Below are positions 8,593-47,328 of a DNA stretch of 64,000 nt, in pieces. The stretch comes from Cetorhinus maximus (Eukaryota). The DNA lies in NCBI RefSeq assembly GCF_964194155.1, contig NW_027596118.1:806001-870000 (forward strand), written 5' to 3'. The first letter of the stretch is position 1, and each line of letters opens with the position of its first letter. The notes under the pieces were generated by a model. It was not told the DNA's origin, did not search any database, and was given only the letters and a program-made list of their open reading frames with translations. A program made the translations under genes and the position numbers.

Positions 8593-9159
8593 NNNNNNNN
8601 NNNNNNNNNNNNNNNNNNNNNNNNNNNNNNNNNNNNNNNNNNNNNNNNNNNNNNNNNNNNNNNNNNNNNNNNNNNNNNNNNNNNNNNNNNNNNNNNNNNN
8701 NNNNNNNNNNNNNNNNNNNNNNNNNNNNNNNNNNNNNNNNNNNNNNNNNNNNNNNNNNNNNNNNTTCCTGACACTGCTAATGTTCATCATTTCTGATCAT
8801 GTGGTTTGTAACTTGCTGCTGTCTGATGTTGGTGAGTGTCTGTCGGTGTAACTGACAGAGGGATTTCAGAGAAATTTGTTGTGCTTTTACTGGCGAACAT
8901 TTAGATTTGATTTAATCACATTTATCTTTATTGATTCGCCTCAGCATTATTAAAGTACTAAAGGATACAATTAAAGAGCCCAGTGGAAGGCGGTGCAGGA
9001 GAAATATTTCGCACGAAGTTTCAAACGCCATTTTTATTGATATTGTTGCTGTTCCCTTGGATGTTCAGGAGAGCACATGTGGAGGGACTTGGCGGTGAAC
9101 CTTTGCACTCTCACCTTTTCTCCCTGCGCCAATGGGCGGAGCCGGCGGGAACCTTCGCT

Positions 9160-9450
9160 CCAACCCCGTCCATTGTGCCCGACAAAGGAAGCAGGACCAG
9201 GCCCTTTCCATTGTGCCGTCATCAATGGGCCAAGATCACTCCCCCGTTCATTGTACAATCTCAGGGCCCTCCACTCTTTGTTATGACGTCATCATGGGAC
9301 TAGGTCCTGCCCCCTGTCCATTGTGCAGTCACATGACCCACCTGCCATATTGTGCCGTTGTCATGAGGAACAGATCTCACCCCCTAGGCATTGTGCAGCC
9401 ACAGGTGCCGCAACTCCCGTTATGCCCTCGTCATGGGAAACAGCACCAAC
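9160..9450. repeat. Degenerate GC-rich tandem repeat 3' of GPCR gene A
   Basis: Repeated CCCC.TCCATTGTGC and GTCAT(C/G)A.GG motifs at about 35/70-bp spacing. Confidence 0.5.
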
Positions 9451-9667
9451 CGCCCCCCCCCCCCACCCACCGCCCACCTGCTCCCCGGTAACTGTGCGGA
9501 TTAGGTGCCTCACCTCAATACTCTCACCAAGGGGATCAGGCACCTTCCCCACACCCCATACCGGAGGCGGAGCTATCCAACTCCTCCAGTCACTCTGTCG
9601 AACGGCACAACAGCCCCACCCACTGGGAATGTGAATTAAAATGAGAAAGTGCTGGACTTTCCCTGAG

Positions 9668-10581
9668 TCATTTCTTCTCACCTTTTTGAAAGAATTCCAC
9701 GATTGGTGCAAAGGGACAGTTCAGTACCTGCTTCAATTGCTCCCTGAATTTTGTCAGGGTCAGGGCATAAATACAAGAATTTGTGGAGCAGCTCAGGAGC
9801 TGCAACATGAAGCCCAGTTCCTGTACATAAGGATGGAGTAATATGGAGTCATAACCCAAATTATGCATCCGGATCCATACAGAATACGCCGCAAACGTTG
9901 CCCACAACAGGAGGAAATTTGCCGAGATAGAAAACAGTAAAATCATGGATTTCCTTCGACTCTCCATCTCCGGATCTCTGAGCCCCTCTCCACTACTCTG
10001 AGCCAGGAGTCTCCTGCGGGCTCTGCTGCTCACTAAAATGTGTCTGATGGTGAAAACATTGAGCAGCAGAATCAGGACAAATGGGACACAGGGAGTAAGA
10101 ATGTAATGGACAAACTCGATTGTTACCCAAACCGTAGACAGGTAAACATCTAGCATTACAGAACAAAACCAGGGCAGGTTCATCAGTTGATAAAATCCTG
10201 TGAACATGAAATACCAGAAAAGGTTATTTAAAAAGCTCAGCACAGTCACTGTTCCAAGAACCGCAGCTGCTGTCTTTTCGGTACAATATCTACATTTCAA
10301 AGTTCGGCAAGATATAGCTACAAATCGGTCAAAAGTGAAAGTGACAGTGAACCAGACTGAGCAATCAGTGGCTGCATAAAGCAGCACGGCATGGATATTA
10401 CAGATACGAAGGTAGTACAAGAAATGAAACTGCTCCCGATGGACAATTGGAATATGCCTCAACACCATGTCGAGTATAATCACCATTAGATCCGCCGATG
10501 CCATAGCCAACAGGTAGTAAGTAACACATTTGGAGAGACCACATTTTCCCCGGGAAATGATCAGAATTGTCAGCGATATAA
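9668..10581 (-). CDS. GPR139-like: GPR139/GPR142-like class A GPCR, paralogue A, exon 2 (uninterrupted frame, end of TM1 to C-terminus)
   Basis: Acceptor TTTCCCTTGCTCGCAG ending at 10582; motifs YLLAMASADL (TM2), FTFDRFVAI (TM3), TPCVPF (TM5), RRKSMILLF..LLW (TM6), GFMLQLLSCSTNSCIY (TM7); about 304 open codons. Confidence 0.92.
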
Positions 10582-11149
10582 CTGCGAGCAAGGGAAATAA
10601 ACAGGAAAAGAATACATTAGGTTAGCATAATGGTTTCGTTGATCACATATTGTAATTTTCGATGGTGCCACTGTAACCATTAATACATTTAATTGATTTT
10701 ACCTGAAAGAACAAATAGTGGAGTTTTAAAATGTTGTATGTCTGGCGAGATTAAATGTTGAAAGCACAATACTGACATTGTAGAACTCAATTTTATTGGA
10801 GGTGCAGGAGCACAGCGACTTTGGGTGCCTGTTCCCAATATTTGAACACGTCAGGCGAGCTTAACCGAAACGGTTAATAAAACAGCTGGGACCTTCCACT
10901 TGATGAATGGATGCAAACTCCATAAATCTCCTCCACAACTTTTCAAAACACTTGTTTCGCCAAACATATTGTATTCTGCCGAATAATGTGCAGCTCACTT
11001 TCGAAGTAACGTGAATAATTTGTAGAGGGTAGAGAGGAGACAGGCAAGAATGGCACCGCAGGTGAGTGATTACAATAACATGGATAGATGGGAGAAGCTT
11101 ATTTATTGTCAAGAAGAGTGCAATCACAGAATGGGTGCAGCATGGAAGG

Positions 11150-11735
11150 TTGATATTCAGCACATCTTATCCATGCTGGTCCACTGACGGAGCAATTCGC
11201 TGGTGTCAGCGTATTCCAGATTAGGGTTTGCAATAAAGGTTTTCCTCAGGGGGACATCGCCTCTTTTTCAAATTACCTTACATCCATGCACTCTGATTCT
11301 CGATACTTCCAACATTGAAAGGGTTTCTCCATACCTACTTTTTCCAGACCGTTTATCATTTTAAATATCTCTTCAAGTCGCCCCTCAATGTTGTGTTTTC
11401 CAAGGAGAACAACCACAACTTTTCCAATTCATCTACACGACTGGGATTAATCATCTCAGAGCAAATTGTCGCCTATCTTTTCTGTACCATCTTTAGTGCC
11501 TTAGCATTCTTGTTAAAATGAGATTTCCAGAGCTGGGCACAATGCTCCATCTGAGGACGAAACTGCGTTTTATGGAGGTTTATCATCTCCATCTTCCTTT
11601 CGTACTCATAGAGCTCAGGATGCGCTAAGATTAATGAACCACTGTCTCAAAATATCCTCCCACCTTCACTGATTCACGCACATGTACATACAGATCACTC
11701 TGCTCCTGCACCAATGTCAGAATTGTGTGCTGAGA
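11150..11735 (-). mobile_element. Decayed CR1 LINE 3' fragment in the intron of paralogue A
   Basis: Antisense of CR1 ORF2 tail motifs (LRGDLKEIFK; CAQLW). Confidence 0.6.
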
Positions 11736-11799
11736 AAGTTACATTAACATGTTCAACATTTTGACCAGTTGAGCGAAATTGAAGGAAGATGCAGTTATC

Positions 11800-12560
11800 T
11801 TTCCGTTTGCTGAATGGGTGATAAACGGATGGCTCAGATATAATCTGATTGGCAGAAGGAGCAGAGGTCTCATTTGAAATACACTGGCCACTAATGCGGT
11901 GCTGCCAGATTTAATAATGCATTTAAAACGTGAATTTGTTAAACATTCGAGGGCGAAAAACTCTAAAGAGGTGAGGGGCAACAATATAAGAATGAAAATA
12001 TTCGCTTTCGGCCTACCAGCACATGTAACTCTCTGAGGACAGGGACGGTGGTTAAACGGGATTTGATTCCAGTTAGGTTACAGGCAGCAGAACGTGGTAT
12101 CTGTTGAGTTTTGTAAAGGTTGTAACCAGGAAGTGAACTTTGAACAAGGTGGTGGTCTGGGGCGGTGCGGATGGGGGGGAGTGGGGGTGGTCGGTGGTGA
12201 GTGAGAGGAGGATATTTTGGCTCGGATGACATTGTAATAGATGAGCATATGGGTCTCAATTTGAAAAAAAAATGCCCAGATTGTGTGTTTATGCAGCAGA
12301 TGGGTCGAGGCAGGATTGGAGACATGTGATTGTAGGACGATGGTCGTGGGCAGTATTTCGGAAAGGTGTATATTGGGTAGGAACTGAGCTCAGGCCATCA
12401 GCAAACGCTCTGGTTAAGCATGAGGCATTGGGCTGGGTCGCGATATTGTGAGGGGGTGGGGTGTGTGGCTGGTGGAGGATGTGTGGATGGAGGACAGATT
12501 TTCGGATAGTCAGGTGACACTGGCTTCGATCCTCACAAGGCTCAACTGAAAAATAAGAAA
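11800..12560 (-). mobile_element. Decayed L2-like LINE fragment
   Basis: Minus ORF contains QQIPRSAACNLTGIKSRLTTVPVLRELH, resembling the L2 ORF2 motif Q.IQN.AAR.LT..K...HITPVL..LHW. Confidence 0.5.
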
Positions 12561-12722
12561 AAGGAGCAGCTAATCAGTGAAATGTGGCTTCCAGATATAA
12601 TAGCTACACAGAGAGACATCCAGGGATATCAAATGAACGGAAGACACGAATGTGAATTTCAAGCACAGCATTGCAACTGAACATTCTTTACGTACTTAAA
12701 AACTGGAGAGAAAAAGACTTAC

Positions 12723-12901
12723 GAGGCACACTAACAATAGCGAGCATTGGATAGTAAAAACATTAAATAACCTTGAAGAACCATTGGGACCCGATATTTG
12801 AATACGATTCCATAATAAATCGTCAACAGATAGTGAACATACCAGGGTAACCCCCAGCCTCTTGTATGATATAAATCGACTGTTCTCAGGTCCTGATCCA
12901 T
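12723..12901 (-). pseudogene. GPR139-like: Paralogue A exon 1, frameshifted
   Basis: Ends YYPMLAIVSVP-C|GTAAG (phase 1, compatible with exon 2). The ATG at 12901 (MDQDLRTVD...) is one base out of frame with YYP, with the lesion at about 12756-12770. The YYP frame has TAA three codons before YY. Confidence 0.8.
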
Positions 12902-13270
12902 TGTTCAAACATTCCAACCTCGTCTCAGATTCTGATCTTTGTTGTAAAAACCCAATCTATTGTTCTCAGATTCTGATCCTTTGTTGTAAAATTCCAAACT
13001 ATTGTTCTCAGATTCTGATCCATTTTTGTAATATTCCACTCTATTGTTCTCAGATTCTGATGTATTTTTGTAATATTCCAATCTATTGTTCTCAGATTCT
13101 AATCGATTGCTGTCACATTCTAAATATTGTTCTCAGATTCTGATCCATTGTTGTTACATTCTAATCTATTCTTCTCAGATCCTGATCCATTGTGGAAAAA
13201 AAATCCAAGCTGCTGGTCTCGGATTCGGACAGATCAATATAATAGTACAAACTATTGTCCTCCGATTCTA
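12880..13270 (-). repeat. 42-bp minisatellite (about 9-10 copies); consensus encodes MDQNLRTIDWNxTT
   Basis: TCTCAG anchors at 12884, 12923, 12964, 13006, 13048, 13090, 13131, 13173 and about 13217. The same unit is in frame in paralogue B exon 1. Confidence 0.9.
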
Positions 13271-13499
13271 ATATAACTTCACCCTCGCTTTGGAGCTGCT
13301 GCTCCGTGACAGTGCCGTATTGATTATCCGTGTTATAGGATGAGATGGCTTATTGGAAGCATTCGCATTTTAATTGAAAAGGTGTTAGCTTTATTGGCAC
13401 AATTAAAGTCCATGGAGACTGAAACTATTATGCCACAAAATAAAAGTGTCACTTAAGCCCTTTCTATTGTACACTAATTAAACAGCTTTTTTGCAGCTT

Positions 13500-13880
13500 T
13501 TGTGGGGATGTCTGAGGTTTTACGAGGGAAGGAAAGGTGGAAATCGTGGACACACTAACCAGTATTCTTCAATCCACCTTGGATATCGGACTATTCCCAA
13601 AGTGTTGTCAATGTTGCTCCCTGTTTATCGAAGGGCAGATGGATAAAACTTGTATCTGCCGATCAATCAAAGAATTGTTAGTGAAACGTTGTGTTATATG
13701 AGAGACTCAATAATTTGGGGTAAAATGAGTTTGTTGATAAGAAACCACGGGTTTATAAATAACAGCCAGAAAAGACACATTAATGGAAAAAAAATGCCTC
13801 TGACAAACTCCATTGGCATCGTTGATGATGTATCAGGTAGGGCTGATGATGAAAGTGTGTTTTTTGTTAACTATACTGGC
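13500..13880 (+). mobile_element. Decayed CR1 RT fragment
   Basis: Degenerate IVDTLTSILQS..NVAPLF and LTNSIG..DDVS motifs of CR1 ORF2. Confidence 0.5.
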
Positions 13881-14849
13881 TAAGAATGACAACGTGCGAA
13901 TTACCGTATTTGTTGGGAAACAGCAACAGATGGTTCAGCTACGCAAGCACAATTTCCTGAATGCTACAGTATATAATCCGAGATGGTACTCGCCCAAATT
14001 TGTTCCTTCCTCCAGAGAATTATCATAGAACATAAAAACTTTTGAAGCTATTGACTTCTTTAGGGATCACCTAGAATGCCAGTGCTATGTCGCTTGCTTT
14101 ATATCTTCTCAGTTCCAGCCATCCTCAGCCTTAAGACTTCAAATTAACATGTATTTAGGCGACTCATTCCCTTGTTCTCTTTTCTCCTCAATATTTCCAT
14201 GTTAATCCACGGTTGGCTATATTTTGACACAAGGCTCTGTGAGGACCACTGTAGATGTTTTTTTCAGTTTCAAACCAGAAAACGTTCCAGATTATTTTTC
14301 CTCATGCAATCCGTGCTGACATTAACGTCACTTGCACTCCACGTGATGAATCTTGGGTTTAGAATAATCGCTGCTCACTGCGCAATCCTAAGTAAGTGTC
14401 ATCAACTGGTTATTTTCTCACAGTGAACATTCGAAGGCACCTGTCCCAGTTGCAGCTAAACAATCTCATAAAACAGGCAGATCAATAGAAGCCAGAGATT
14501 CTCACAAAACTGCACACATCTCCGAGGGGCATCTTCAGGTGTCTTCTCAACTAGACCTTTAGTTTATGTATCCTTAAATGGAAAATGTTTCACTGATATG
14601 AAGCAATACATAGATCTTACAGACCTTCAGTTTTCATCGATTATGCTTGAACTAATTTAGCTCTAATTCTTTTTTAAAAATCTGGACCGTCAGCCCTGAG
14701 AGAAAGGATGGTAACCACCATTTCTACACAAAAACAGCCAAGGAGAAGTCATCCATTGTTTACTACCTGCTGCTTTATGACTCTTACCTTTCTAATCCGG
14801 CCTGTTAAATTTGGCCTGAGGGGCCAAATGAGCTGCTTTCATATAGCAG

Positions 14850-15077
14850 CTTGTTCTGGTCTGGATTGCACTCTCTGGAAATATGGTGGATGCAGGTTCA
14901 ATCGAGGCTTTCAAAAGGGCGTTACATGAATATTTGAATAGAGACAATTAGTAGGGTTATTGGGAAACGGCAAGTGGATGGCACTGAACAATAATGCTCA
15001 TTCAGACAGCCGGCGTGGTCACGATGGGCAGAATGGCCTCCTTCTGCACCATTGCAATTCCGTCATTCTATGATTCT
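14850..15077 (+). mobile_element. CR1 LINE 3' terminus
   Basis: GATGGGCAGAATGGCCTCCTTCTGC...ATTCTATGATTCT terminal motif. Confidence 0.8.
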
Positions 15078-15224
15078 GAATTTACCTTCACGCGTCCAAA
15101 CATTTGACAGTGAGAGCAATTTATTGTCCGCACCTCAATGTTGTGTGTTAAATGCGGCGTGGGGGAGACGGGGTGGGATAGGAAAATGCGGGGGGGTGGG
15201 ATGAGGAAAGTCAGATGTTCATTT

Positions 15225-15460
15225 TTGAGGGAGTGCCGCATTGTCAGAGGGTCAGCACATAGGGAATGCTGCACTGTCTGAGGGTCAGTACTGAGGAATT
15301 GTTGCACTATCGAACTATCAGCACTGAGTTATCACTGAGCTTTCAGAGATTCAGCATAGAGGGAATGCCGCATTGTCGGAGCGGAAGTACTGAGGGACCG
15401 GTGCATTGTCGGAGAATCAGTACTGACGGTGTGCTGCGCTGTCAGAGGCCAGTGCTGAGT
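15225..15460 (+). repeat. 33-bp minisatellite (about 7 copies), DeuSINE-domain-like unit
   Basis: TACTGAGGGAGTGCCGCATTGTCAGAGGGTCAG-like units. Confidence 0.75.
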
Positions 15461-16469
15461 TAAAAGCCCGGTATATCACCTTTCCTCCCTCTGTCTACCT
15501 GGTATATCACATTGGCGGAGCCCCGCTGCTGGTGTGTTTGTTATTATAGAATTCCGCAATCATGATCCTGGAATCTCACCCACACTCGCACGTTGTACCT
15601 ATTGTAATTTCACACTTCCCCGGTGCACCTGGAACGGGTACATCCCCCACTGTACCTGCTATATTACCTTCCTGCACTGTTGTGCCTGGAATACCCCCTA
15701 CCTCATGTAACTGTATTTTCCCTCGCACTACCGGCAATAAACATCATCCCTCCTTGCTGCTGCTGCTTTTGTTGATGGCCTGATTGCTCTCACAACCAGG
15801 GATTTGCGGGACCACTGATGACGCTCCCCTTCCCTCTGTTCTCCAGTCTGTATGGGTCTCTGTGCAGCGCTGCCAATTAACAGCTTATGGAACAGACTCT
15901 TTCCGTTTGTTCTGTGACCGTAACGGCCGCACATCCTCCCACTCCGCCCTCTGCCTGGTGTCAGCCCAGCAAACATCCCCTCTGCCGATGGAAAGAAAAA
16001 TAATATGGAAACGTAATGGACATCCTCAGTCTGTCAATGTTCAAATTCTCGGGTGGATTAAAGAATTGGAAGAAAACGATATTTCAGCACATTCTTCAAC
16101 TGCTCCCTGAACTGAACCTGGGTCACGGTGTTAATCCCAGTGTTTGTGCAGCAACTCAGGAGCTGCAGCATGAAGCCCAATTCCATCACAATATAATCTA
16201 GATCAACTTGCACATTCCCCAAGAACGATATCCGGCTCCACATAGGAAAGAATATTAACATTTCCCACAATAGGATGAAATTGGCTGAGATAACGAGCAG
16301 TAAAATCATGGATTTCCTCCGACTCTCGACCTTTGGGTCTCTGGGACTCTCCCCACTGCTGTGAACCTGGAGTCTCCTGCGGGCTCTGCTGTTCAGTAAA
16401 ATGTGTCTGACGGTGAGAACATTGAGCAGCACAATCAGGACAAATGGGAGACAGGGGGTAGAAATTAAG

Positions 16470-16808
16470 TGGGGCGATGGTGTAGAGGGATTGTCACTGG
16501 ACCAGAAAACAAGAATCATGGTCAGGGAACAGGCGTTTGAATCCCGCCCTGGCAGATGTTAGAATTTGAATTGAACAAAAACCTGGAATAAAAAGCACAT
16601 TGATGACCATGACACCATGGCCAACTGTGGCAAAATCCCACCTGGTTCACTAATGCCCTTTAGAGAAGGAAATCTGCTGGGCAATATGAGCCTCCAGACC
16701 CACGGCAATGTGGTTGACTCTTAATTGCCCTCTGAACAAGGGCAATTCGGGATGGGCAATAAATGTCAGCCTAGCCAGCGACGCCCACGTTTCATGAATG
16801 AATAAAAC
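16470..16808 (+). mobile_element. tRNA-derived SINE inserted in paralogue B exon 2
   Basis: A-box-like TGGTGTAGAGG (about 16478), B-box-like GTTTGAATCC (about 16535), body CTGGTTCACTAATGCCCTTTAG, and a LINE-derived tail ending TGAATGAATAAAA. It interrupts HHIL/TPC of TM5. Confidence 0.88.
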
Positions 16809-16852
16809 AAGAATGTGATGGAGGAACTCGACAGCTGTCCAGACGGGAGATG

Positions 16853-19800
16853 GTTTTGGAAAGAGTGTCATGCAGTCAGCGTCACCGTGAAGACGTCTGG
16901 AAAGAGTATCCTGCAGATATTTTTGAGAATAAAAATAGTGACATCAAAAAAGAGCGCGATGGAGAGATCAGAACCAGCGCGAGTGCGGGGATGCTTCAAA
17001 AAGTGACGGCAGCACAAAGGTGAGAGCTGATTGGTGAGTCACGGGGAAGTGTATTCCCCTGGGTAAGCTAAGGAAAGGTAATTTAAAATACATAAATAAC
17101 ATAAAGTTTATTTTTTACAGTATTTAACTTAAAGTAAAGAACGGTTTTTTTTTTCAAACTAGAGGCACGGCAGGGCAGCTCAGTCCCATGTTATGTACCG
17201 CCTTCAACATGTGGGAAGTCTTAGACGCTCCTTACTCTCTGACCGACCACATGTGCAGGAAGTGCCGTCAACTGAAGCTACATGAGCTCCGAGTTTCAGA
17301 GCTGGAGCGGCAGCTGGAGGCACTGAAGCGCATCGGCGAGGCTAAGAGTTTGGTGGCTGGAACGTTTTTAGGTATGGTGACCCCAAAGCAGACAGAGCTG
17401 GATTGGTAACCATCAGTCTGAAGAGATGTGTCAGACAGGTAGTTAGGAAATCCCGAGGGTGCATATCGCTCGAGAACCGTATTTCTGTGTTGGAAAACGG
17501 TGAGAGTGACGGTTCGACTGGGGAGTGCCACCACGCTCATGGCACTGAGTGGCTCAGCTGCACAACGGGGAAGGAAAAAGAGGGGAAGAACAATAGGTGC
17601 AGGAGGGTCCATAATAAAGCGAACAGACAGCCGTTTCTTAGGCCATTGACGTGACTCCAGGATGGTATGTTCCCTCCCTGGTGCCAGGATCAAGGATGTC
17701 ACTGGCTGAAGGGCATTCTAAAGTGGGAGGGCAAACAGACGGTGATCGTGTTACATATTTGTACCAACGACATCGCTGCAAAGAGGGATGAGGACCTACA
17801 AAAAGAATTTAGGCATCCAGGAAGCAGATTAAAAACAGGACCTCAAAGGTAGTGATCACCGGACTTCTTTCAATGCCACGCACTGGTGAGTATAGAAGTA
17901 GGGGATTAGTCCAAATGAATGCGTGGCTGGTCAGAAGGTGCAGGAGAGAGGGCTTTCTATTTATCGCATATTGGGACGGTTTCTGTGGGAAGTGGGACCT
18001 GTACAAGGCAGACAGGAAGCATCTGAACTGCAATGGGACCAACATCCTTGCGGGGAGGTTTGCTGGTGTTGTTGGTGAGGGTTTAAACTAACTTGTCATG
18101 GGGATGAGATCCTGAGAGGTGGTTCAGCAGGGGGAGTTGCACAGCCAAAATAAGTAGTGAGAGCAAGTGAGTCTTGAAGGCATATAAATATAGGCCAGTT
18201 AAGGCAGAAGCAAGTTTGGCAAGGTTGGATGGTATTTATTTTAATGCAAGGAGTCTGACAAAAAAGGCAGATTTGACAGCATAAGTTAACACATGGAAGT
18301 ATGATGTCCTTGCTGCCGCAGAGACATGGCTGTGAGAGGGGCATGATTGGCAGCTCAAAATCCCAGGGTATAGGGTCTTCAGGCGAGACAAGGAAGGGGG
18401 TATAAGAGGAGGGAGTTTCGCAATATTGGTCAAGGAATCAGTGACAGCAGTAAGGAGGCTCATAGAAGGCTCCTCAACTGAATCCATATGGATAGAACTG
18501 AAAAAACTAAAAAGGAGCAATCACATTGCTGGAAGTGTACTACAGGCCGCTAAACATTCATAGAGAAATGGAAGAGAAGATATCTAGGCAAATTATAGAG
18601 CAGTGTAAAAATAATAGGGTAGTAACATTGGGTGATTTCAAATTCCCCAACTTTAACTGGGTTAGTCCTAGTGTGGTAGATTTAGAGGGCTACGAATTCT
18701 TACAATGCACCCAGGAGAGCTTTTTAAGCCAGTACATCGAAGGTCCTACAAAGGAAGGGGCGGTCCTGCACTTAATTTTAGGAAATGAAGCCGGGCATGT
18801 GGACGAGGTATCTGTGGGGGACCGTTTTGGGCATATTGATCATAAATCCGTTAGATTAACGTTGTTATGGAAAAGGACAAGGGAGTGCCAGAAATCAGAG
18901 TTCTAAATTGAAGGAAGGTCAATTTTAAGAAGATCAGATATGATTTTACCAGAGTGGGCTGGGAGGAGCTTATTTTAGGTAAATTGGCATCAGAGCAGTG
19001 TGACTCATTCAAGATGGAAGTTGGGAGAGTGCAGGACCAGCATATTCCAGTAACAATAAAGGGCAGGAGCAATAAATCCAGGGAAACCTGGATCTCGAGG
19101 GATATAGAGGATTGGATAAAGAGAAAATGAAAGGCTTATGGCAGTTAACGAGAGCTCAAAACAGCGGATGCCCTAGAAGAGAATAGAGTGTATAGGGGGC
19201 AACTGAATAAGGAAGTTAGGAGAGCAAAAAGGGGGTATGAAAAATCATTGGCAGGAAAAATAAAGAAAAATACAAAGTTATTTTACAAGTTCATTAGGAG
19301 TAAGAGGTTAAGTAGGGAAAGAATAGAGCCCATTAAGGACCATTTTGGAAATGTGTGTGTGGAGTCGGAAAACGTAGGTCAGGTTCTAAATAAATGACTT
19401 GTATTTGTGTTCTCAAGTGAGAGGGGTGATAGAAATCATGCAGAGGTGCTGTGAGATAATTAAATAAATTAGCACAGAAAGGGAAGAAGTTCTAAGCGGT
19501 TGACAGGCTTAAAATAATATGAATCTCCAGGACCAGATGAAATTGATCCCAGGCTTTGAGTGAGGCAAGCGGGGAGATAACAGGGACTCTGGCAATAATT
19601 TTCAACACTTTTCTGACCACAGGAGAGTTGCCAGAGGAGCCAAAGTGGCACCGTTATTCAAGAAGGGAGGATGGGATATACTAGGGAACTAGAGGTCAGT
19701 CAGTCTAACAACAGTGGGTAAATTATTGGAAGTAATTCTGAGGGCGATACTTTATCTACACCTGGAGAGGCAGGGTAAATCAAGGACAGTCAGTTTGGTT

Positions 19801-21067
19801 TGGTTAAGGAGATGTTATGCCTGAGTAATTTGATTGAATTTTACGAAGACGTGACCAGGTGTGTAGATTATGGCAATGCATTTGATGTAGTCTACTTGGA
19901 CTTCAGCAAGGCTTTTGATATGGTCAGGAGACAGATAACGAAGGTAAGAGCCCGTGGGATCCAGGGCAATATGGCGAATTGGGCCCAGAATTGGCTGAGT
20001 GGCAGGAAGCACATGGTGATGGTCTACGGGGGTATTTGTGACTGGATGACTGTGTCCAGTGGCGTTCCACATGGGTCCGTGTTGGGTCCCGTGCTGTTTT
20101 GGGGATATATAAACGATTTAGATTTGAATGCAGGGGGGTTGATTAGTATGTTCGCGGATGGCACGAATATTTGTGGGGTGGTAAGTAGTAAGATTGATAG
20201 CCTTAGATTACAGGAGTATAGAGACAGGCTGATCAGATGGGCTGAACATTTTCAAATGTAATTTAATCCAGATAATGTTGAGTTTCTGGACTTGGGCAGG
20301 ACAATCAAGACACGGGAATATGAGGAATGTTAGGATCTTGGGAAGTACCGCGGATCATAGGGATCATGGTGTGCATGTCTAGCAGTCTCTTCATGTAGTC
20401 GGGCAGGTTGATAAGGTGTTTAAGAAAGCATATGGGATACCTGCCTTTATTAGACGAGGAATAGAATATAAGAGCAGGGAGGTTATGCTGAACTGTAAAA
20501 AACGCTGGTTAGGCCACATCTAGTGTATTGCGTGCAGTCTGGAATCCGCATTATAGGTAGGATGTGAGTACATCAGATTGTAGAGGAGATTTACGAGGAT
20601 GTTACCTGGCCTGGATATTTTTAGTTAGGAGGAGAGTTTGAATAAACTGGGGTTAGTTTCACTGGAGCAGAGGAGATTGAGAGGGGACATTATTGACGTG
20701 TATAAAAATATGAGGGGCAGAGATAGCGGAGTCAGGATGTTACTTTTCCCGTTCGTGGATGGACAAATAACGAGGGGGCATAGATTTAATGTAAGGGGCA
20801 GGAGGTTTAGAGAGAATGTGAGGAAGAATTATTTCACCCGGAAGGTGGTGAGAATCTGGAATTCACTGCCTGAAAGGGTGTTCGGGGCAGAAAACTTCAT
20901 AACATTTAAGAAGTATTTGGATGTGCACTTGTGATGCCCTGGCATACATGGCTATGGACCTATTGCTGCAAAATGGGATTAGAATAGTTAGGTACTTATT
21001 TGACCGGCGCAGACTCGATGGTCCGAGTTTTCTGTGCTGCAGACCACTTTGACTCTATTAATCTATG
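16853..21067 (+). mobile_element. Near full-length CR1 LINE (4.2 kb, inactivated)
   Basis: ORF1 Cys-rich/coiled coil (MWEV..CRKC..LRVSELERQL) and esterase-like (HICTNDI, HLN..GT) motifs. ORF2 APE (FNARSL, ETWL, YYRP, GDF.FP, DH) and RT (VYLDFSKAFD, GVPHGSVLGP, FADGT) motifs and tail FTRKVVRIWNSLP. Short ATG duplication at both junctions. Confidence 0.95.
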
Positions 21068-22129
21068 TCTGAAATTCTAATAATAGAAAAAAGAATCACG
21101 GGTTGTTCATCAGCAACTAAGAATCTGGTAACATGAAATAGCAGAAAATATTCTTTAAAAGGCTCAGCGCAGTCATTCCTCTCAGAGCCATTTTCACGGT
21201 GCAATATTTACTTTTCAGTTTCTGGAAATAAATGGCCACAAACCGATCAAATGTGAAAGTCTCTGAACCACACACAACGTCCAGTGGCTGCATAAAGCAG
21301 GACGGCATGGATATGACACAGACGCATGGCCCACAGGAAATGAAACCATTCCCAATACCCAATCAGAATGCTTGTAAATAACAACTATCAGTTTGCCTCA
21401 AGGCGCTGACATTTTCCACTATATTGCTGCCTGCAGTGCCGTATTGCAAGTATTGTACATGCAATAATAGACTGAAATGTCTCTGATATGGTGGGAGACA
21501 ATAGAGATTAAATGGCAATAACTATGTTACTTAAATTGCTGAAATCGGCTGTTAATCATAATCCTGTCCTCCTGGATACTTGAACTGGTATAAAAACTTT
21601 GCAATCTCCAAAATACTTGTAATTCTGATGAAGAAGAAATAATTCAGTTCAACATGGTTTATAGAATTAATAGCCATATACAGTGAGACTTACCCGGGAT
21701 GCCAAAAATAGCGAGGATGGGATAGTAACCCCCCTGAATCAGCTGAAGTGTCCGATAGATCCGGCTTTCCACTGACATCCGATCATAATATGTAGAAAGT
21801 TCATAAAGCGCCTCCAATGAACTCCTACTCATTGTTGTAACATTCCGATCTATTGTCCTCAGATCCTGATCCATTGTTGTAACATTCCAATCCATTGCTC
21901 TGAGAATCTGATCCATTGTTGGAACTTTCCAATATGTTGTTCTCAGACTCTGATATCCTCTCTCCCTGTCTTATAACCGCGGGTCCCTGTTCCTCAAGGA
22001 GCTGATGCCCCCGCTGACAATATGAGGTAACACAATGTTGCGACTCCCTGATTAACAACAGTGGGAAGCCCCCCTGTGAGTTATTTAGGATCTATGGAGA
22101 CTGACATTAATTACAGCCACTGAACAAAC

Positions 22130-22960
22130 AGGCTCATTTAACCCGTTCAGTCCAAATATACTTGCACCACACTAAATTGGAACAGTTAGCTGGTCCGTCC
22201 GTCCGTTTTTGATGGACGTAATAGTGTAAAGAGAATAGTGTGAAGCAGAAAATCGGGCAAATGTAGGAAGTGTTTAGTATAAATATCGGGTGGACATAAG
22301 CAAGTCGTTGAAGGTGGCAGCGCAAGCCTTTTAGAGTATTAAAATAGCAATATATTTTTATTGATAAACAGAATCAGAGTTTACAAAACTAAGAAAATCA
22401 GACAACATATGTGTAAATCTTGGTGAAGCCTCAGCTGAAGTACTTGTGTCTAATTCTGGCGAGCGTTTTTCAGGAAAGATGTGAGGGCCTTGGAGAGGGT
22501 GCAGAGGAATTTTACTGGAATTGGAACAGGGATGAGGGGCTTGAATTATGTGGAGAGACTGGAGAAGCTGGGATTGTTTTCCTTCGAGCAGACGAGGCAA
22601 AGGGTACGTTTAATAGAGGCATTTAAAATCACGAATGTTTTAGACAGAGTAAATAAGGTGAAACTGGTGATACTGGAAAATCAGTCAGTGACCAGCACAG
22701 GGAGTTTTAAAGTGATTGAAAAAGAAGCATAGCGCGGTTGAGGAGCTGTTCGTGCAAATAAATCTGAAATGTCCTTCCTGACAGGCTGACGAATGCAAAT
22801 AAACATTTAACTGTGAAAATAGAATTGGATGAGCACAGGCAGTGGATATTTGCACAGCTAATGGAGGGGAGGAGAGGAGGGTTGATTAGATAGGTGTGGC
22901 AGAGTCCAAACGTTCACGATGGGCCACATGGCGTCTTCCTCAAATGTATGATTCGATGGC
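22130..22960 (+). mobile_element. CR1 LINE 3' fragment
   Basis: ALERVQRNFT...LEKLGLFSFEQ; terminal GATGGGCCACATGGCGTCTTCCT...ATGATTC. Confidence 0.85.
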
Positions 22961-23089
22961 TCTGTTCCGTCAGAGGGCATAGGGAGCGAAAATCATGTTT
23001 ACAGATGATTTTTTAACAGAATCATCGAAACAGAGGCTGGTCATAATTGTATGCTGATGGATGCAAGAGCGGAAACAGACACACATACT

Positions 23090-26000
23090 CCCTCTCAGGA
23101 AATAGTCTTAAGAACTCCTCTCAGAAACTTCTCTCCGGAACCCCTCTGAGGAAGTTCCTCTTGTCATGCCGTACATAGAATACTTCTTAGTAAAATTACT
23201 CCTTCCAATGTGTATCACCTCACACTATTCAGGATTAATTTCCATCTGCCAGTTAACTGCCCATCAGACCATCCCGTCTAGATCTTCCTGTAACACAAGA
23301 CACTCGACCTCACTGTTGACCACCCGGCCAATATTTGTGTCATCCGCACACATACTAATGCTGCCCACCACATAGTCATCTATGCAGCTATCTATCCTCT
23401 CATGAACTCCTCTCAGGAACCACTCTCAGGAAGTACTCTCAGGAACACCTCTCAGTAAAAAATCTCCATAACTCCTCTCAGGAACTCCTCTCAGGGTATG
23501 CTCTCAGGAAACCCTCTCAGGAAGTTCCCCCAGGAAATCCACTCAGGAATTGCTCTAAGGATCTCCTCCCATGAACTCCACTCAGGAACTCCTCTCAGGA
23601 ACCCCTCTCGGAAATCCAGCCCAGGATCTTCTCGAAGGATCCCCTGTCAGGAAACCATCTTAGCAATTTCTCTTAGGATCCGCTCTCAGGAACTTCCCTG
23701 TTAAACCTGTCTCTTGAAGCGCTCTCAGGGTCTCCTCTCAGGAAACCTCTCAGGAATTCCACTCAGTAACGCCACTCAGAAAGCCCCTTTAGGAACCCAT
23801 CTCAGGGACGCCTCTCAAGAAACCCTCTCAGGAACCCTTCTCAGCAACTCGTTTCAGGAGCACATTTCACGAACTCCTCTCAGGAACCCCTCTCATGAAC
23901 TCCTCACAGGAGCCGACTCTCAGTAACTCCTCTCAGGAACTCCTCTCAGGAATGCCTCAGAGGAAACTTCGCATTAACTCCCCTCAGCAACTCGATTCAG
24001 GAACCCCTCTCAGGAACATCTCTCAAGAACCCCTCTCAGGAACTCTTCTTAGTAACACCACTCAGTAACTTCTCTAAGGAACCCCTCTCAGGAACCCCTA
24101 TCAGGATCTCCTCTCAGGACCTCATCTCAGGAATCCCTCTCAAGTACTTCTCGCATTAACTCATTTATGGAACCCCTCTCCAGAACTACCCTCAGTATAT
24201 CCCTCCCAGGAACCCCTGTCAGGAACTCGTCTAAGGAAGACCCCCACCCCACCCCCCAGGAACCCCTGTCAGGAACTCCTCTCAAGAACAACTCTCAGGA
24301 ACTCCTGTCAGGAAATCATCTCAGGGTCCCATCTCAGGTTCTCTGTTCAGTAATTCCTCTCAGGAATCCCTCTCAGGAAACACAGTCAGGAATTCATCTC
24401 AGGGATGCCTCTCAGGACCCCCTGACAGGAACCCCTGTCAGTTAATACCCGCTGTCACTTTGCTCATGACGCCTCTCAGGAACTAATCTTAGGAACTCCT
24501 CCCTGTATCTTCTCTCTGTAAACCGTCTGAGGAACACGTCTCAGGAACTCCTCTCAGTATCACCTATAAGGAACCACTCTCAGGAACCCCTCTCAGTAAC
24601 TGCTCTCTGGAACTCCTAACAGGAACACCTGTGAGAAACAACCCTCACTAAATCCTTTCAGGAACACCTCTCAGGGACTCCCCTCAGATGAATCCGTCTC
24701 ATGATCTCCTCTCATGAAACTCACTCAGGAACATCTCTCAGGAACTCCTCTAAGGAACACCACTCATTAATTCTTTTAGGAACCCCTCTCAGGAACCCCT
24801 ATCAGATTCTCCTCACTTGAACGCCTGTCAGGTACCCCTCTCAGGATCTCCTCTCAGGAACTCATCTCAGGAATCCCTCTCAAGTACTCCTCGCATTAAC
24901 TCCTCTATGGAACCCCTCTCCAGAGCTACACTCAGTAAATCCCTCCCATCAACCCCTGTCAGGAACACCTCTAAGGAAGCGCTCCCGCCCCCACACCCCT
25001 CCCACACAGGAAGCCCTCTCAGGAACACCTCTCAAGATCTACTCTCAGGAAGGCCTGTCAGGCAATCATCTCAGGGTCCCATCTCAGGATCTCTGTTCAT
25101 AATTCCTCTCAGGAATCCCTCTCTGGAACCACAGTCAGGAATTCATCTCAGGGATGCCTCTCAGGACCCCTTATCAGGAACCCCTCTCAGTTAATACCCT
25201 CTCTAACTCTCCTCATAACTCCTCTCAGGAACTAATCGCAGAAACTCCTCCCAGTATCTTCTCTCTATAAACCCTCTGAGGAAAACATCTCAGGAACTCC
25301 TCTCAGTATCACCTATAAGGAACCACTCTCAGGAACCCCTCTCAGTAACTGCTCTCTGGAACTCCTATCAGGAACCCCTCTCAGAAACACCCCTCTGCAA
25401 CTCCTCTCAGGAACCCCTCTCAGGAAAAGCTATATGGGACCCCCTTCAGGAACCGCACTCAAAAACTCCGCTCCGGAACTGCTATCAGGAACCCTTATCT
25501 GAAACAACAATTACTAAGTCCTATGAGGAACATCTCTCAGGAACGACTCTAAGGAAATCCTTTCAGGAACACCTCTCAGGGACTCCCCTCAGATGAATCC
25601 GTCTCATGATCTCCTCTCATGAAACTCACTCAGGAACATCTCTCAGGAACTCCTCTAAGGAACACCACTCAGTAATTCTTTTAGGAACCCCTCTCAGGAA
25701 CCCCTATCAGATTCTCCTCACTTGAACGCCTGTCAGGTACCCCTCTCAGGATCTCCTCTCAGGAACTCATCTCAGGAATCCCTCTCAAGTACTCCTCGCA
25801 TTAACTCCTCTATGGAACCCCTCTCCAGAACTACACTCAGTAAATCCCTCCCATCAACCCCTGTCAGGAACACCTCTAAGGAAGCGCTCCCGCCCCCACA
25901 CCCCTCCCACCCAGGAAGCCCTCTCAGGAACACCTCTCAAGATCTACTCTCAGGAAGGCCTGTCAGGCAATCATCTCAGGGTCCCATCTCAGGATCTCTG

Positions 26001-29000
26001 TTCATAATTCCTCTCAGGAATCCCTCTCTGGAACCACAGTCAGGAATTCATCTCAGGGATGCCTCTCAGGACCCCTTATCAGGAACCCCTCTCAGTTAAT
26101 ACCCTCTCTAACTCTCCTCATAACTCCTCTCAGGAACTAATCGCAGAAACTCCTCCCAGTATCTTCTCTCTATAAACCCTCTGAGGAAAACATCTCAGGA
26201 ACTCCTCTCAGTATCACCTATAAGGAACCACTCTCAGGAACCCCTCTCAGTAACTGCTCTCTGGAACTCCTATCAGGAACCCCTCTCAGAAACACCCCTC
26301 TGCAACTCCTCTCAGGAACCCCTCTCAGGAAAAGCTATATGGGACCCCCTTCAGGAACCGCACTCAAAAACTCCGCTCCGGAACTGCTATCAGGAACCCT
26401 TATCTGAAACAACAATTACTAAGTCCTATGAGGAACATCTCTCAGGAACGACTCTAAGGAAATCCTTTCAGGAACACCTCTCAGTAACTCCACTTGGAAA
26501 CCACTCTCAGGAGCTCTTGACAGGAAATCCTCTCAGGAACCCGTCTCAAGAACTCCTCTTAGGAACCCCACTCAGGAAGGCATCTCAAGATCTCCTTTAG
26601 GAACTCCCCGCAGGAACTCCTCTCAGGATTCCATCTCAGGAACTCCACTCAGGAACCCCTCTCAGGATCCCATCTCAGGAACTCCTCACAGAAGCCCCTC
26701 TCAGGAAATCCTCTCTGGATCCCTCTCGGGAATTCATCTCAGGTACTTCTCTACTGAACTCCTCTCATGTTCTCTTTTAGGCACACCTCTAAGAAACTCA
26801 CCTTAGGAACTACTCTCAGGAATTCCTCTCAGAAACTTCTCTATTGAACTCCAGTCAGGGACACCTCTCAGGATCTCTCCTCATCAACCCCTCTTAGGAT
26901 CTCCTCTCAGGAAGTCCCCTCAGCAGCTACTCTGAGGAATAACTCTCTGGAATCCCTCTCAGGAACTCCTCTCAGGAACTTAACACAGGAACTCCTCTCA
27001 GGAACTCCTCTCAGGATCCCCCTCAGGAGTTCCTCTCACGTGATTCTCCATTGAATTCCTCTCAGCAACTACTCTCAGTTTCTTATTTAAGCACACCTCT
27101 CAGGAACTCCTCTCAGGGCTCACTGTCAGGAATACCTCTCAGGAACTTCTCCATTGAACTCCTCTGAGGAACTCCTCTCAGGGATGCCTCTCAGTAACCC
27201 CTCACAGTTACAACATCTGTAACTCCTCTCATAACGCCTCTCAGGAACTTATTTCAGGGACTCCACACAGCAACGTCTCTCAGTAAACCCTCAGAGGAAC
27301 CCCTCTCAGGAAGCTCCTCTCAGTATCGCCTCAAAGGAACCGCTCTCAGTAACCCCTCTCAGTAATTGCTGACTGGAACTACTATCAGGAGCCCCTGTCA
27401 GAATCAACCCCCAGTAACTCCTCTCAGGAACAAATCTACGGAATTCCTCTCAGGAAATCCTCTCATGAACGCCTCTCAGTCACTCCTCTCAGGAAATCAT
27501 CTCAGGAAGTTCTCACAGGAACCCCGCTCAGTAATGCCTTTCCGGTTATCCACTCATTAGCTCTTCTCAGGATCGCATCTCAGGATCGCCTCTCAGGAGC
27601 TCTTCTCACTTACCCCTCTCAGGAGCTCCTCTCAGGAAGCACTCTCATGAACTCCTCTCAGGCACTCCTCTCAGGAACCCCTCTCAGGATCTCCACTCAG
27701 GACCTTCACAGGAATTCATCTCAGGAACATATGTCACGAACGCTCTCAGTAACTCCTCTCAGGAACCCCTCTCAGGATCCCCTCTAAGGAACCCATTCCT
27801 GGAATTCCTCTCAGTAAAACCTCTCAGAAAACCCTCCCGGAAACAACTCTTAGTAACTCCAATCAGGAACGCCTCTCAGAGACTCCTCTCAGGAAACCCT
27901 CTCATGAACCCGAATCACGATCTCCTCCCAGTAACCCCTCTTAGGATCTCTTCTCAGGAACCACTCTCATGAACTCCTCTCAGTACCTCCTCTGAGGAAA
28001 ACCACTAAGGAACACTTCTCAGGATCTCCCCTCGTGAACCCTTCTCAGGAACTACACTCCGGGCCGCCTCTCAGCAACTCCTCTCAGGAAACCCTCTCAG
28101 TACCCCCTCTCAGGAACACCACTTTCGAACCCCTCTCAGTAATTCCTCAAAGGGTCTCCTCTCAGGAACCATTCTCTGAACCTTATCAGGAACGCCTCTC
28201 AGTAACCACTCTAAATAAGCCCTCTCATTAACTCCTATCAGGAACACCTCTCAGAAAAAAAACCCTCAGTAACTGCTCTAGGGAAGACATCTCAGGAACT
28301 CCATTCAGGAACTCCTCTCAGGATCTCCTCTCAGGAACTCGTCTCAAGAATTTCTCACAGGAAACATTCGCTGGAAAACCCTCTCACGAACCACTCTCAG
28401 TAACTTCAATCAGTAATTCCTCTCAGTAACTCCTATCAAAAACCCTTCTCATAAACAGCCATCGGTAACTCCTCTCAGGAACTCCTCTCAGGAACTCCAC
28501 ATAGGAATAATCCCAGGGAAATCCTCCCAGGAACTCCTCTGAGAAAATCATCTTAGTCTCTCATAACGCCTTTCAGGAACTCCTTTCAGGAACACCCCCA
28601 GTAACGTCTCTCAGTAAACCCTCAGAGGAACAGCTCTCAGGAGCCACTCTCAGTATCCGCTCTAAGGACCCCCTCTCAGGAACCCCTCTCAGTAATTGCT
28701 CCCTGGAACTCCTATCAGGAGCCCCTGTCAGAAACAATCCTCAGTAACTCCTCTCAGGTACAAATCTATGGAATTCCTCTCAGGAACTCCTCTCATCAAC
28801 CCCTCTCAGTCACTCCTCTCAGGCACTTCTCACAGGAACCCCACTTAGGAACGCCTCTCAGTAACGCATCTCTGTAACTCCCTCTGTAACTCCTCTCCGG
28901 AACTCCTCTCAGCAACTCCTCTCAGAAACACCTCTCAGGAACCCCGCTCAGGAAGTCCCCACAGTAACAACACTCAGGAAACCCTCTCATGAACACTTCT

Positions 29001-32531: not shown

Positions 32532-33366
32532 CTAACATAGTGACGATTGTGTCACATTTGCAGAAAGTGTGGTCTCTCCAAATGTGACACTCGGCAAATG
32601 GTGACTATGGCAGTGGCAAACCTGGTTTCTTCAGCCTGATATTTCGACACTTTCTGATTGTTTTCTAAAAAGAGTTATGTTTCTTGAACTCCACCACCGT
32701 CTGAAATGCCAATACTATCAGCCACTGACTGTTCTGCCTGGTTCACAGTCACTCGCACCATTGAAAGCTCTGTAGCCATTTGTTGCCAAAATCTGACATG
32801 TAAGTATTGTGCTGGAGAAACAGCGGCTGATGTTCGGGTAATCATAACTTTTTTGCGCTGTTTAAGGAACATTTCCTGATATTTATTGTTAGCAAATGAG
32901 TATTGGCTGGCGACAAAAACCCGCTCTGTTTAGTGACAACAAATGACCTGCATTTTCTGGCCTGGAGAATAATCGAGTTCCTCAATCACATTCTAACCCT
33001 GGAGAGGCGATTTGCCCGGCTTCTGCTGCTCAATGGTTTCACTGTCAGGCACGGGTTAGTGACCAGCACAAGCTGCAGGAGATGCCAGGCTATCAAACAG
33101 ATGGAAAATCGAAGTGAACTCAACATTTTACTTTTGTCCTCTCAGCCAATTGCATCAGGTTATGGTCAACGTTTACGGTTTATTCTCTGTGATGGCAGAT
33201 GTTGGATGCGTTGTCTAGTTTTATGTTTCCAGGCAATTTTGTGCAAGTGTTTGGCTTCATTCTGCAGCTCCTGAATTGATGCACAATCATTTGCATTTAT
33301 ATTGTGACTCAGAATATGTTGCGATTGCATTTGAAGAATGTGCTGGAAAATGATTGAAGTAACTGA
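32532..33366 (+). pseudogene. GPR139-like: GPR139-like paralogue D, heavily decayed exon 2
   Basis: Acceptor TTTCTCTTCCGCTCAG ending at 32531, then (A)NIVTIV..KCGLSKC..MAVANL, ATDCSAWFTV, AICCQNL.CKYC, EFLNHIL, LNGFTVRH, GFILQLL, LKNVL, with many frameshifts and stops. No exon 1 found. Confidence 0.85.
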
Positions 33367-38110: not shown

Positions 38111-38675
38111 CTTTATTTTTGCGATTGTCACGAAGCATTTTTGATAATGGTATTTAGACACATTTATGTGACTGAATGTGTTGCCAAGGTCGATTATCAG
38201 TTTACATATTTAATGCAGCTAAGAGCTGGGGGTTTTAGGCCACGTCGAGGGAAAATGTACCCTTGGCTCCAGGTCTGTTGAATCAGTTTTGATTTATTTT
38301 TCCCAGTTTTTTTTTTCTCTTCCCGGTAGATTAGTGATGCTTTTGTTACTGCCGCGAGGAAAGTGTTATCCTTCAAATTGTGTTATTTGCTACCTGAAGC
38401 GAAAGGCAGCAACAGAGGTGATGGGCGTCATATCAGATCCGATGTTAAGGAGGATTTGTCAGGCGAAATTCCCAGTTTTATTCGGGTGCAATACTCGGAT
38501 CTCGCACGTGTAAATGCATGGGGTTTCTATGTTTCTTTATAATTCACAATCTCGTCTTTCTGCTTCACAGTTGCCCTTATCAATGATCCGACAGTGGATA
38601 TTTGTTGCAAGAAGCACTTGTATTTCAGCCCTTCATGTTCAAATCTTTCTATCTATCCATCCATCTATCTATTTA

Positions 38676-40449: not shown

Positions 40450-41500
40450 TCTAGGAAGGTGATGTCAGGACCCTATGCAGTGGGATCCAGCTTGCAATCT
40501 CTGAGTTTGTCTTTGAGATTTCATGCATCCTGTAGTGGAGCTCCCCGTGCTCACCGAGTGTGGCGTTTTGGTACGTAGGCATTTTCCAGATGAACCGCAT
40601 GACCTACCCAGGGAACCGGGGCTCTAATGAACATATTTTCGATGTCAGGTATGCTGCACTTTGCAAGATCATCGGTTTTGCGGATTTTGCCCTTGCCAAC
40701 AATCGTTGGAAATGGTTCATGGACATTGAAGTTGGAAAGTTTTCATTTGCTTTCTATGAGGCCGAAAGATTATGCAAGTCTCGCACTGATATGGAAGTGA
40801 TATAAAAATCACTGCCTGGCAGGACTCGATATTCCATCTGAGGGAAAATCCATGTTTGATTTGCAGAAGTCAGTGAGTGAAGCCTGCCAAGTGCCGAGCT
40901 TGTTTTTGTCAGGCGGAGGGTAATTTGCCCATCCAGTTAGTGCCCTTGGAGTGCATGCTACCAAGTTAGCAATACTTCCGTACTGAACAGAGTGGTGCGT
41001 TGTTCAAAGCGGCTGTGGTATCTTGGAGCACGTAACCAGCAACGGTTTGATACAGCATCTCTATCCTCAGATATATTGTCAATCGAAAACATTCTGAGTT
41101 TGCAGCAAAGCGCTCAGCACGCAGCTGAATGTCTCCGGATCCTGAGCCATGAGTGCGCATTGGTCCGCGAATAAGACTTCCCTCTGTAGCTTTCCAGTAA
41201 CCTCTGTGCAAGGATTTAACTTTGGCTCTTTTAAAAGGCTGCCTGTGGTCCTGAAATAAATGTGTAATCTTGTGTTAAGCTCTTTGAGCGCATGCTTGGA
41301 GAATGACCGATAAATATATGACAAACAGAGCTGGAGCCATTAAACAGCCTCATTTGGCGCCGCAAGTGACATGAAATGGGTTCACAATGACGAACCACTT
41401 TGCATCGCTCTGATTATGACGCCATCACCAAAGAGCAAAAGACACTGATCATCTGTTCAGGGCTGTCGCATATTCATGGCTGAGTTGGATATTTCATTGA
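40450..41500 (-). mobile_element. Decayed RTE-clade LINE RT fragment
   Basis: HIYFRTTGSL...REVLFADQCALMA, matching RTE I.YRT.G.L..RELLFADDCAL. Confidence 0.7.
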
Positions 41501-43413: not shown

Positions 43414-43483
43414 ATGGGAGAACTGATACTTCACCAGATAAAAGCCATTTACTATCCTATTCTTGCGGCTATTGGTGTTCCTG
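43414..43483 (+). CDS. GPR139-like: GPR139-like paralogue E, exon 1
   Basis: AAGATGG start; MGELILHQIKAIYYPILAAIGVP-G|GTAAG, phase 1. Confidence 0.88.
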
Positions 43484-46438: not shown

Positions 46439-47328
46439 TTAATGTTGTTGCGATTGTGATTCTTTCCCGAGGAAGGTGTGGCCTCTCCAAATGTATTACC
46501 CACTATATGATCGCCATGGCCGCGGCGGATCTCCTAGTTGTTTTTTCTGAAGCCATACTGAAGAATACGCTGGATATTTATTTCCCTGTTTTATTCTTGA
46601 CCATGAGTACGTTGTGCCAACTAAAATTGACATTGATTAATGTAGTCACATCAGCCTCTGTCTGGTTAACTTTGGTGTTCACCTTCGATCGTTTTGTGGT
46701 CATATGTTGTAAGAAGCTGCGAAAAAAATAGTGCACGGGTACAACAGCAATAGCTGTCATATCAGTGGTGAGTGTGTTGAGTTGTTTGGTAAACATTCCA
46801 TGGTACTTTGCGTATGAACCTGTGTATATAATGGACAATGTTATTCATGGTTGTGTCCTAAAGCAGACATTTTTCCTTTCTGCTGAATGGGTCGCATTTG
46901 ACTTGTTTACCCTTACCTTGACTCCATGTGCTCCATTCGTTCTAATTTTGTTGCTAAATGTTTTGACTGCTAGACGTATTTTGGCGGCCAGTAAAGTTCG
47001 CAGGAGTCTCCGCGGTTGCAGCAATGGAGGACATCACAAGGACCCTGAAATAGAAATCCGAAGAAAGTCCATTATTTTACTCTTCAGTATAACCGGCAGC
47101 TTTATATTGCTCTGGACAACACCGGTTATATATATTATTTATCTGCGTGTAACATTCACATCGAATTCTGCCGCAATTGAGCTTGAATCAGTTGGATTCA
47201 TGCTCGGGGTCCTCAGTTCCTGCACAAATACATTCATTTATGTGCTGGCACAGGCTAAGTTCAGGGAAGAGCTGAAGAGCGGAATGCAGTACCTTGTGAA
47301 AATGTGCGCAAAATTAAAGCTGAATTAA
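46439..47328 (+). pseudogene. GPR139-like: GPR139-like paralogue E, exon 2 with a single in-frame TAG at 46729-46731
   Basis: Acceptor TCTCTCTCTTACAG ending at 46438; VNVVAIVILSRGRCGLSKC..AMAAADLL..FTFDRFV..KK*CT..TPCAPF..RRKSIILLF..GFMLGVLSSCTNTFIY. The same frame continues on both sides of the stop. Confidence 0.9.

Follow-up and report, generated by a model that had tools for sequence, protein, structure and literature searches.

A variable-number N-terminal repeat in a subfamily of shark receptors, best read as a duplicated leader-plus-start segment

The window (the whole stretch of 64,000 nucleotides that was analysed, from contig NW_027596118.1 of Cetorhinus maximus) is shark DNA. Class A GPCR genes are clustered in it, each made of two exons that a phase-1 intron in TM1 separates; A and B are read from the minus strand and E from the plus strand. 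The exons, their remnants and the pieces between them are as follows.

9668..10581, minus strand: A exon 2, intact, from the end of TM1 to the C-terminus, with Pfam 7tm_1; four Carcharodon proteins are closest (85-87%)
12723..12901, minus strand: coding part of A exon 1, running from the ATG of the last repeat unit up to the GT donor; at 179 nt it has one base more than a phase-1 intron allows
12763..12774, minus strand: lesions of A exon 1, an extra base near 12773 and a TAA at 12765-12763 in the family frame (VI*CFYYP)
16041..16646, minus strand: 3' remnant of B exon 2, about 4.4 kb from the 5' remnant
about 17200-20900: pieces of LINE endonuclease and reverse transcriptase that separate the two B exon 2 remnants; a related copy lies at 59242-60518
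21070..21369, minus strand: 5' remnant of B exon 2, with no homology found to the first 42 codons, gaps of 2 and 9 bases, and stops
21694..21916, minus strand: B exon 1, open, 223 nt, phase-1 donor intact
32535-33345, 38268-38483 and 58902-58982, plus strand: degraded remains of this receptor family; no unit was detected close by
43414..43483, plus strand: E exon 1, 23 codons, no unit
46439..47328, plus strand: E exon 2, interrupted in frame by a TAG at 46729-46731

The assignment to class A comes from A exon 2, which scored 59.7 bits against Pfam 7tm_1 (cut-off 30.5), and from the model of protein P0018, which shows seven long helices. A exon 2 was 84-87% identical to Carcharodon proteins and about 71% identical to those of the next genera; in a search with this exon, 119 of the 120 matches listed (the best 120 of 1816, E <= 0.001) carried shark names. 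The stem encoded by B exon 1 was closest to Carcharodon P0002 (72% over 46 residues), and E, with 49% identity to its nearest rows, was assigned to a different subfamily. The window also contains a satellite of 13-bp units at 23395-31761 (about 644 copies, with a strong C skew).

We observed a 42-bp tandem unit in the first exons of A and B. Tandem Repeats Finder reported it at 12874-13200 (7.9 copies, 81% matches) and at 21830-21954 (3.0 copies), and the individual units could be placed as listed here.

12860..13276, minus strand: A array, ten unit-lengths (eight clear), an ATG heading four units, three upstream ORFs
starts 13276 and 13234, minus strand: degenerate A units, 28 and 29 of 42 bases agreeing with the consensus
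starts 13190, 13148 (41 bp), 13107, 13065, 13023, 12981 (41 bp), 12940 (39 bp) and 12901, minus strand: the remaining eight A units, 32-40 of 42
21833..21958, minus strand: B array, an ATG-less unit at 21958 and intact units at 21916 and 21874, followed by an ATG at 21832 (M-S-R-S)

Chance gives a best match of 23-26 of 42 in 20 shuffled windows. Upstream of E exon 1 the best match over 40000-43500 was 21 of 42, i.e. at chance level, and no unit was found there. The array is present in A (ten unit-lengths) and B (three) and absent in E, as the original prediction had stated. It had also described 41-bp units and TAG codons that break the frame in A, and this was confirmed: two units are of 41 bp and one of 39 bp, TAG occurs in units 13276, 13190 and 13107, and TGA in unit 12940. 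Only the last A unit runs into the rest of exon 1 free of stops, while in B the units follow one another head to tail in frame. The further claim, that an intact unit supplies both an ATG and a glycosylation sequon, held for part of the array: the two occur together, with the sequon readable, only in units 21916, 21874 and 13023, and not in the other 10 of the 13 units of the window. The sequon is missing from the last A unit (12901), whose start is the only one to share its frame with the remainder of exon 1. The upstream ORFs that had been foreseen are there as well, three of them (9, 11 and 32 codons), starting at the ATGs of broken A copies. The 42-bp unit in turn consists of two 21-bp subunits, which agree at 15 of 21 bases.

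Predicted GPR139-like receptors of nine genera of sharks (Carcharodon, Heterodontus, Scyliorhinus, Mustelus, Stegostoma, Rhincodon, Heptranchias, Pristiophorus and Cetorhinus) carry the encoded 14-residue unit at their N-terminus. The unit persists in squalomorph and galeomorph sharks, and it marks one subfamily of a large receptor family that is mislabelled GPR139 in databases. A spread of the unit beyond GPCR first exons, named beforehand as an observation that would speak against the idea, was not seen: all 47 matches of a repeat-only search were N-termini of shark-named members of this receptor family, and none of 775 shuffled N-termini gave a unit call. A search with B exon 1 against the 50% representatives returned 33 matches, 31 of which were family first exons when judged by eye; the matches to P0148 and P0150 were dismissed as unrelated low-complexity sequence. 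Against the longer proteins the same exon gave no match (7 candidates), a weak null result since other searches do find relatives. No ray or chimaera name appeared among the unit-search matches, from which absence does not follow, as the searches favour multi-unit genes.

Copy number ranged from 0 to 9 in the 120 proteins of at least 290 residues (eight named shark genera and one further row), the zero-copy class including gene models that lack a true first exon; many receptors had none or one. The expected variation among paralogues was seen even at close range, as unit number differed in 37 of the 53 protein pairs that are at least 90% identical in their 7TM part. In a tree the paralogues clustered mostly by genus. 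Units of one gene resembled each other more than units of different genes did in Heptranchias (0.92 vs 0.85), Scyliorhinus (0.81 vs 0.58) and Stegostoma (0.72 vs 0.59), and this excess was absent in Heterodontus (0.63 vs 0.63); the Heptranchias and Heterodontus consensus sequences are nevertheless identical at 12 of 14 positions. The spacing was 14 residues in 112 of 125 intervals and 13 in 10 of 125, figures taken from predicted gene models, in which the gene caller selects for in-frame spacing. A 13-residue variant of the unit in Scyliorhinus P0130 and P0159 has been amplified up to eight times.

The interval 12400-13600, i.e. A exon 1 and its flanks, was covered by many divergent contigs (runs X2, X5 and X6), and A-like loci are therefore multi-copy. 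Some contigs in runs X2 and X6 skip 207-208 bases (about five units) of the A array and, given this multiplicity, are possibly paralogues. Summed contig depth in X2, X5 and X6 was far higher over the units than over the flanks, which we took to reflect many unit-bearing contigs and not copy number.

GPR139 and GPR142 are class A orphan receptors activated by L-Trp and L-Phe, and GPR139 is to our knowledge a single conserved gene without such a repeat. The shark proteins carry the database label 'probable GPR139', and among solved structures human GPR139 was the sole match of a repeat-bearing relative, a weak one (2 sequences, E 9e-13, 51 bits). In the available part of one study, R6x51 is described as unique to GPR139 and GPR142 (PMC8807744). 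None of the 125 named proteins with a TM6 motif had this residue (F in 59, L in 57; position set via the GPR139 alignment), and 7x50 was T in 131 of 137, not F as in GPR139. Since the R6x51 signature is absent, the shark receptors form a family separate from GPR139. They share with GPR139 and GPR142 an aligned W6x48, but the shark genes are many and lineage-expanded, and their extracellular parts are variable. In being additional GPR139/142-related subtypes outside tetrapods they resemble GPR210A/B, orphan subtypes of coelacanth, gar and some fishes (PMC6504862, in the part available). The word 'shark' does not occur in that paper, and neither 'shark' nor 'cartilaginous' occurs in the passages of PMC12208981. 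The literature searched, i.e. titles, abstracts and passages of open papers, contained no description of this receptor family or repeat, and shark genome papers may list the family in their tables.

Across 62 proteins, conservation was high in TM3 (0.96) and TM7 (0.91), and low in ECL2 (0.63), ECL3 (0.58) and the N-terminal stem (0.47). Variable extracellular parts on conserved helices are, as far as sequence comparison goes, what one expects of a repertoire that has diversified in ligand binding. Divergence is faster in the stem than in either the unit or the upstream block, and diversifying selection on the stem is possible. OR, TAAR and V2R are birth-and-death chemoreceptor families, and the shark receptors are like them in having clusters, many pseudogenes, lineage expansions and variable extracellular loops on a conserved core, although they belong to another GPCR lineage.

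Coding repeats of variable number are known from GPIb-alpha (13 residues), PSGL-1 (10 residues) and DRD4 (16 residues). There, as here, in-frame tandem units alter the length of a flexible, often glycosylated region. Those repeats, however, are internal to the protein and differ from allele to allele of a single gene, whereas the shark unit varies between paralogues, includes the start codon and appears to derive from the 5' leader.

The original prediction took the unit for a coding VNTR through which paralogues tune how long the ectodomain is, how many glycans it bears and which start site is used, a role that would call for selection. Several observations agree with this. In-frame arrays reach 9 units; the 13-residue variant of Scyliorhinus retains both frame and sequon; the hydrophobic residues stand at perfect heptad spacing; and the sequon is present in 75 of 115 distinct units, with at least one N-terminal sequon in 79 of 83 unit-bearing genes, which fits selection for some glycan. 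We examined the 115 distinct units for selection on the peptide, excluding Heptranchias, whose last units are truncated and whose copies are nearly identical. The unit offers internal controls, as N4 and N11 share a codon, and so do T7, T13 and T14. The sequon residue N11 was retained at 0.86, compared with 0.83 for the non-sequon N4, and T13 (as T or S) at 0.71, compared with 0.72 for T7 and 0.78 for T14; the most frequent replacement of T13 was Pro, with which the sequon is lost. The replacements were also indifferent to chemistry. Of 397 replacements, 343 lay one base away from the consensus codon, and their excess similarity over the neutral expectation was +0.12 BLOSUM units (95% -0.09 to 0.33), compared with +0.83 (0.66 to 1.01) at exon-2 sites of equal variability. 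Once mutation types were fitted, the BLOSUM62 coefficient was 0.01 (95% -0.21 to 0.12) for the unit and 0.46 (0.35 to 0.56) for 95 equally variable exon-2 sites; the counts are non-independent on the tree, and the unit test has 14 sites only. Hydrophobic heptad positions received hydrophobic replacements in 22 of 28, 34 of 47 and 19 of 24 cases, but in 5 of 12 at L5. In the protein-only comparison the stem had a value of 0.53 and the unit 0.75.

The sequon residues are kept no better than their controls, and the claim that the sequon or the peptide is under selection found no support here. Also against tuning, many genes have none or one unit, and the last A unit and the Carcharodon orthologue P0001 are without a unit sequon. 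We consider tuning of the ectodomain quite unlikely, and the case for it is weak; a slight selection to keep some glycan, or on how long the tail is, may nevertheless act. Counted on the coding strand, A-to-G and G-to-A changes in the units of relatives were about 2-3 times as frequent as T-to-C and C-to-T.

The repeat tail is probably disordered, to judge from the models. In AlphaFold pLDDT is below 50 over residues 1-61 (35-43 in the repeat), compared with about 70-90 in the 7TM bundle; the Atlas model had a mean pLDDT of 0.45 with mixed look-alikes. Coiled-coil Pfam matches fell below their cut-offs, and an Atlas feature search gave no usable match. The idea of a tethered-tryptophan agonist was dropped, as R6x51 is absent and W10 is freely replaced.

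The unit might alternatively be kept as a nucleotide element, a cassette for start-site choice, transcription-factor binding or translation control, whose copies set expression and whose peptide is a by-product. In nine window units the departures from the consensus were spread over the codon positions as 16, 15 and 11, the 21-bp subunit corresponds to two helical turns, and the three upstream ORFs of A all begin at unit ATGs. A and B are 81% identical in the unit, compared with 65% at the four-fold sites of exon 2 (39 of 60), 57% in the upstream block and 59% in the stem, a difference that may reflect constraint on the nucleotides or gene conversion. The word AACAAT, which we take to be a SOX-type site, occurs 7 times in the 417 bp of the A array, 3 times in the 129 bp of B and 64 times in the 64 kb. 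Set against these points, the excess of the unit over four-fold sites has a p value of 0.12 and gene conversion gives the same pattern, the residues overlapping AACAAT (T7, I8, T14 and M1) are not the best kept, and a search of Rfam over 9000-23000 found no family. A role as a nucleotide element appears unlikely to us. In the consensus AACAAT recurs about once per 21-bp subunit.

The register of the array bears on its origin. Upstream of both arrays lies a block that can be aligned between the two genes.

13278..13543, minus strand: A upstream block, 57% identical to the B block over 261 aligned bases, abutting the first, ATG-less unit
21960..22230, minus strand: B upstream block, ending in an A/G-rich tract that adjoins the first unit

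In both A and B the first unit has no ATG. Among the 14 proteins that show an A/G-rich upstream tract only 1 has a Met-headed first unit, as compared with 117 of 143 inner units; the figure of 1/14 hinges on the tract filter, and 10 of the 32 proteins with a visible extension have a Met-headed first unit. Contig loose ends from three runs that link A/G-rich tracts to the unit lacked an ATG at its head in 4 of 6 cases, with two unclear (judged by eye). At the other end, 44 of 69 genes have Met directly after the last unit, where the consensus reads M-D-R-S-L and several genes have their start. With an ATG-less first unit and a Met after the last one, the natural register of the repeat is 39 nt of leader plus an ATG. 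Conservation in 7 proteins (21 pairs) was 0.47 for the unit, 0.42 for the upstream block and 0.29 for the stem. This register, together with a conservation like that of the upstream block, accounts for a peptide that looks conserved and yet is chemically neutral.

The upstream block is probably a promoter or 5' leader. In P0112, P0125, P0138, P0145 and P0183 an upstream ATG opens a frame of about 46 codons in this ~265-bp block, continuous with that of the units; the frame is broken in A and B. The block is possibly a promoter or an older coding extension. A TATA-like word before the B array was dropped from consideration, as paralogue contigs have other bases there.

We therefore favour, with confidence a little better than even, the reading that this shark-wide N-terminal repeat of variable number is a duplicated leader-plus-start segment, near-neutral at the protein level. 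The repeat would be a tandemly duplicated piece of the first exon in one shark subfamily of GPR139-like class A receptors. In the simplest gene, the upstream block and the A/G-rich tract would be followed by one ATG-less copy and then by ATG-GAT-AGG (M-D-R-S). The piece could have been multiplied by slippage or unequal crossing-over, aided by the ATGGAT common to both ends. Each copy would bring 14 stop-free codons ending in ACA-ACA-ATG-G, and thereby a new in-frame start in strong context; with an added copy, what had been leader would be translated as a flexible N-terminal tail, which happens to contain an N-V-T that may be glycosylated. Because the downstream ATG remains, copies may be gained, lost and mutated almost neutrally, and damaged upstream copies would become upstream ORFs. 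Duplication of a leader along with its start codon is a simple route from 5' leader to coding sequence, and the repeat looks like a tolerated by-product of duplication, not a tuning device.

In this reading translation would begin at the first ATG. Alternatively, transcription or translation might begin around the last ATG; most units would then never be translated, and the long N-termini would be artefacts of gene callers that pick the longest frame. All the proteins are predicted, and several come from DNA, since their frame runs on past exon 1 into intron sequence; the evolution of the units resembles that of the flanking block, and P0001 starts at its last unit. Under the scanning model, on the other hand, the first transcribed ATG in strong context should be used, and the unit ATGs do have A at -3 and G at +4; the B array, moreover, adjoins the coding stem without a break. 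We regard untranslated units as highly improbable. Expressing these receptors requires a choice of which ATG is used.

Instability of the array had also been proposed to drive pseudogenisation, and the positions of the lesions do not bear this out. The lesions of A lie some 90 bases past the downstream end of the array, and in B and E it is exon 2 that is damaged; the array is therefore not the cause of the breakage in A, B or E. One contig of X5 and two of X6 lack the extra base of A; it may be private or an assembly error, and the TAA would in that case interrupt the frame. In Carcharodon the orthologue P0001 has an open frame beginning at the corresponding last unit.

An effect of copy number on expression, if there were one, would give a receptor repertoire a built-in dial of a rare kind. 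Such a selected expression dial in sharks could work through intact copies that shift the start upstream and add a glycan, and through damaged copies that act as strong upstream ORFs, lowering the receptor without destroying it; array-bearing first exons might also be re-paired with other second exons, as B exon 1 with A exon 2 over 11.1 kb. We find this decidedly doubtful, and the present evidence favours a by-product.

The pairing itself is a lead from exon structure. B exon 1 (21916-21694) and A exon 2 (10581-9668) are both intact, lie on one strand and are phase-compatible, and their own partners are broken. Judged from sequence, they may form a single live gene over an 11.1-kb intron. Carcharodon P0002 shows the same exon pairing, being the closest relative of the B stem (72%) and having an exon 2 of the A type (85%). 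The remnant of B exon 2 is nearer to Scyliorhinus proteins (69%).
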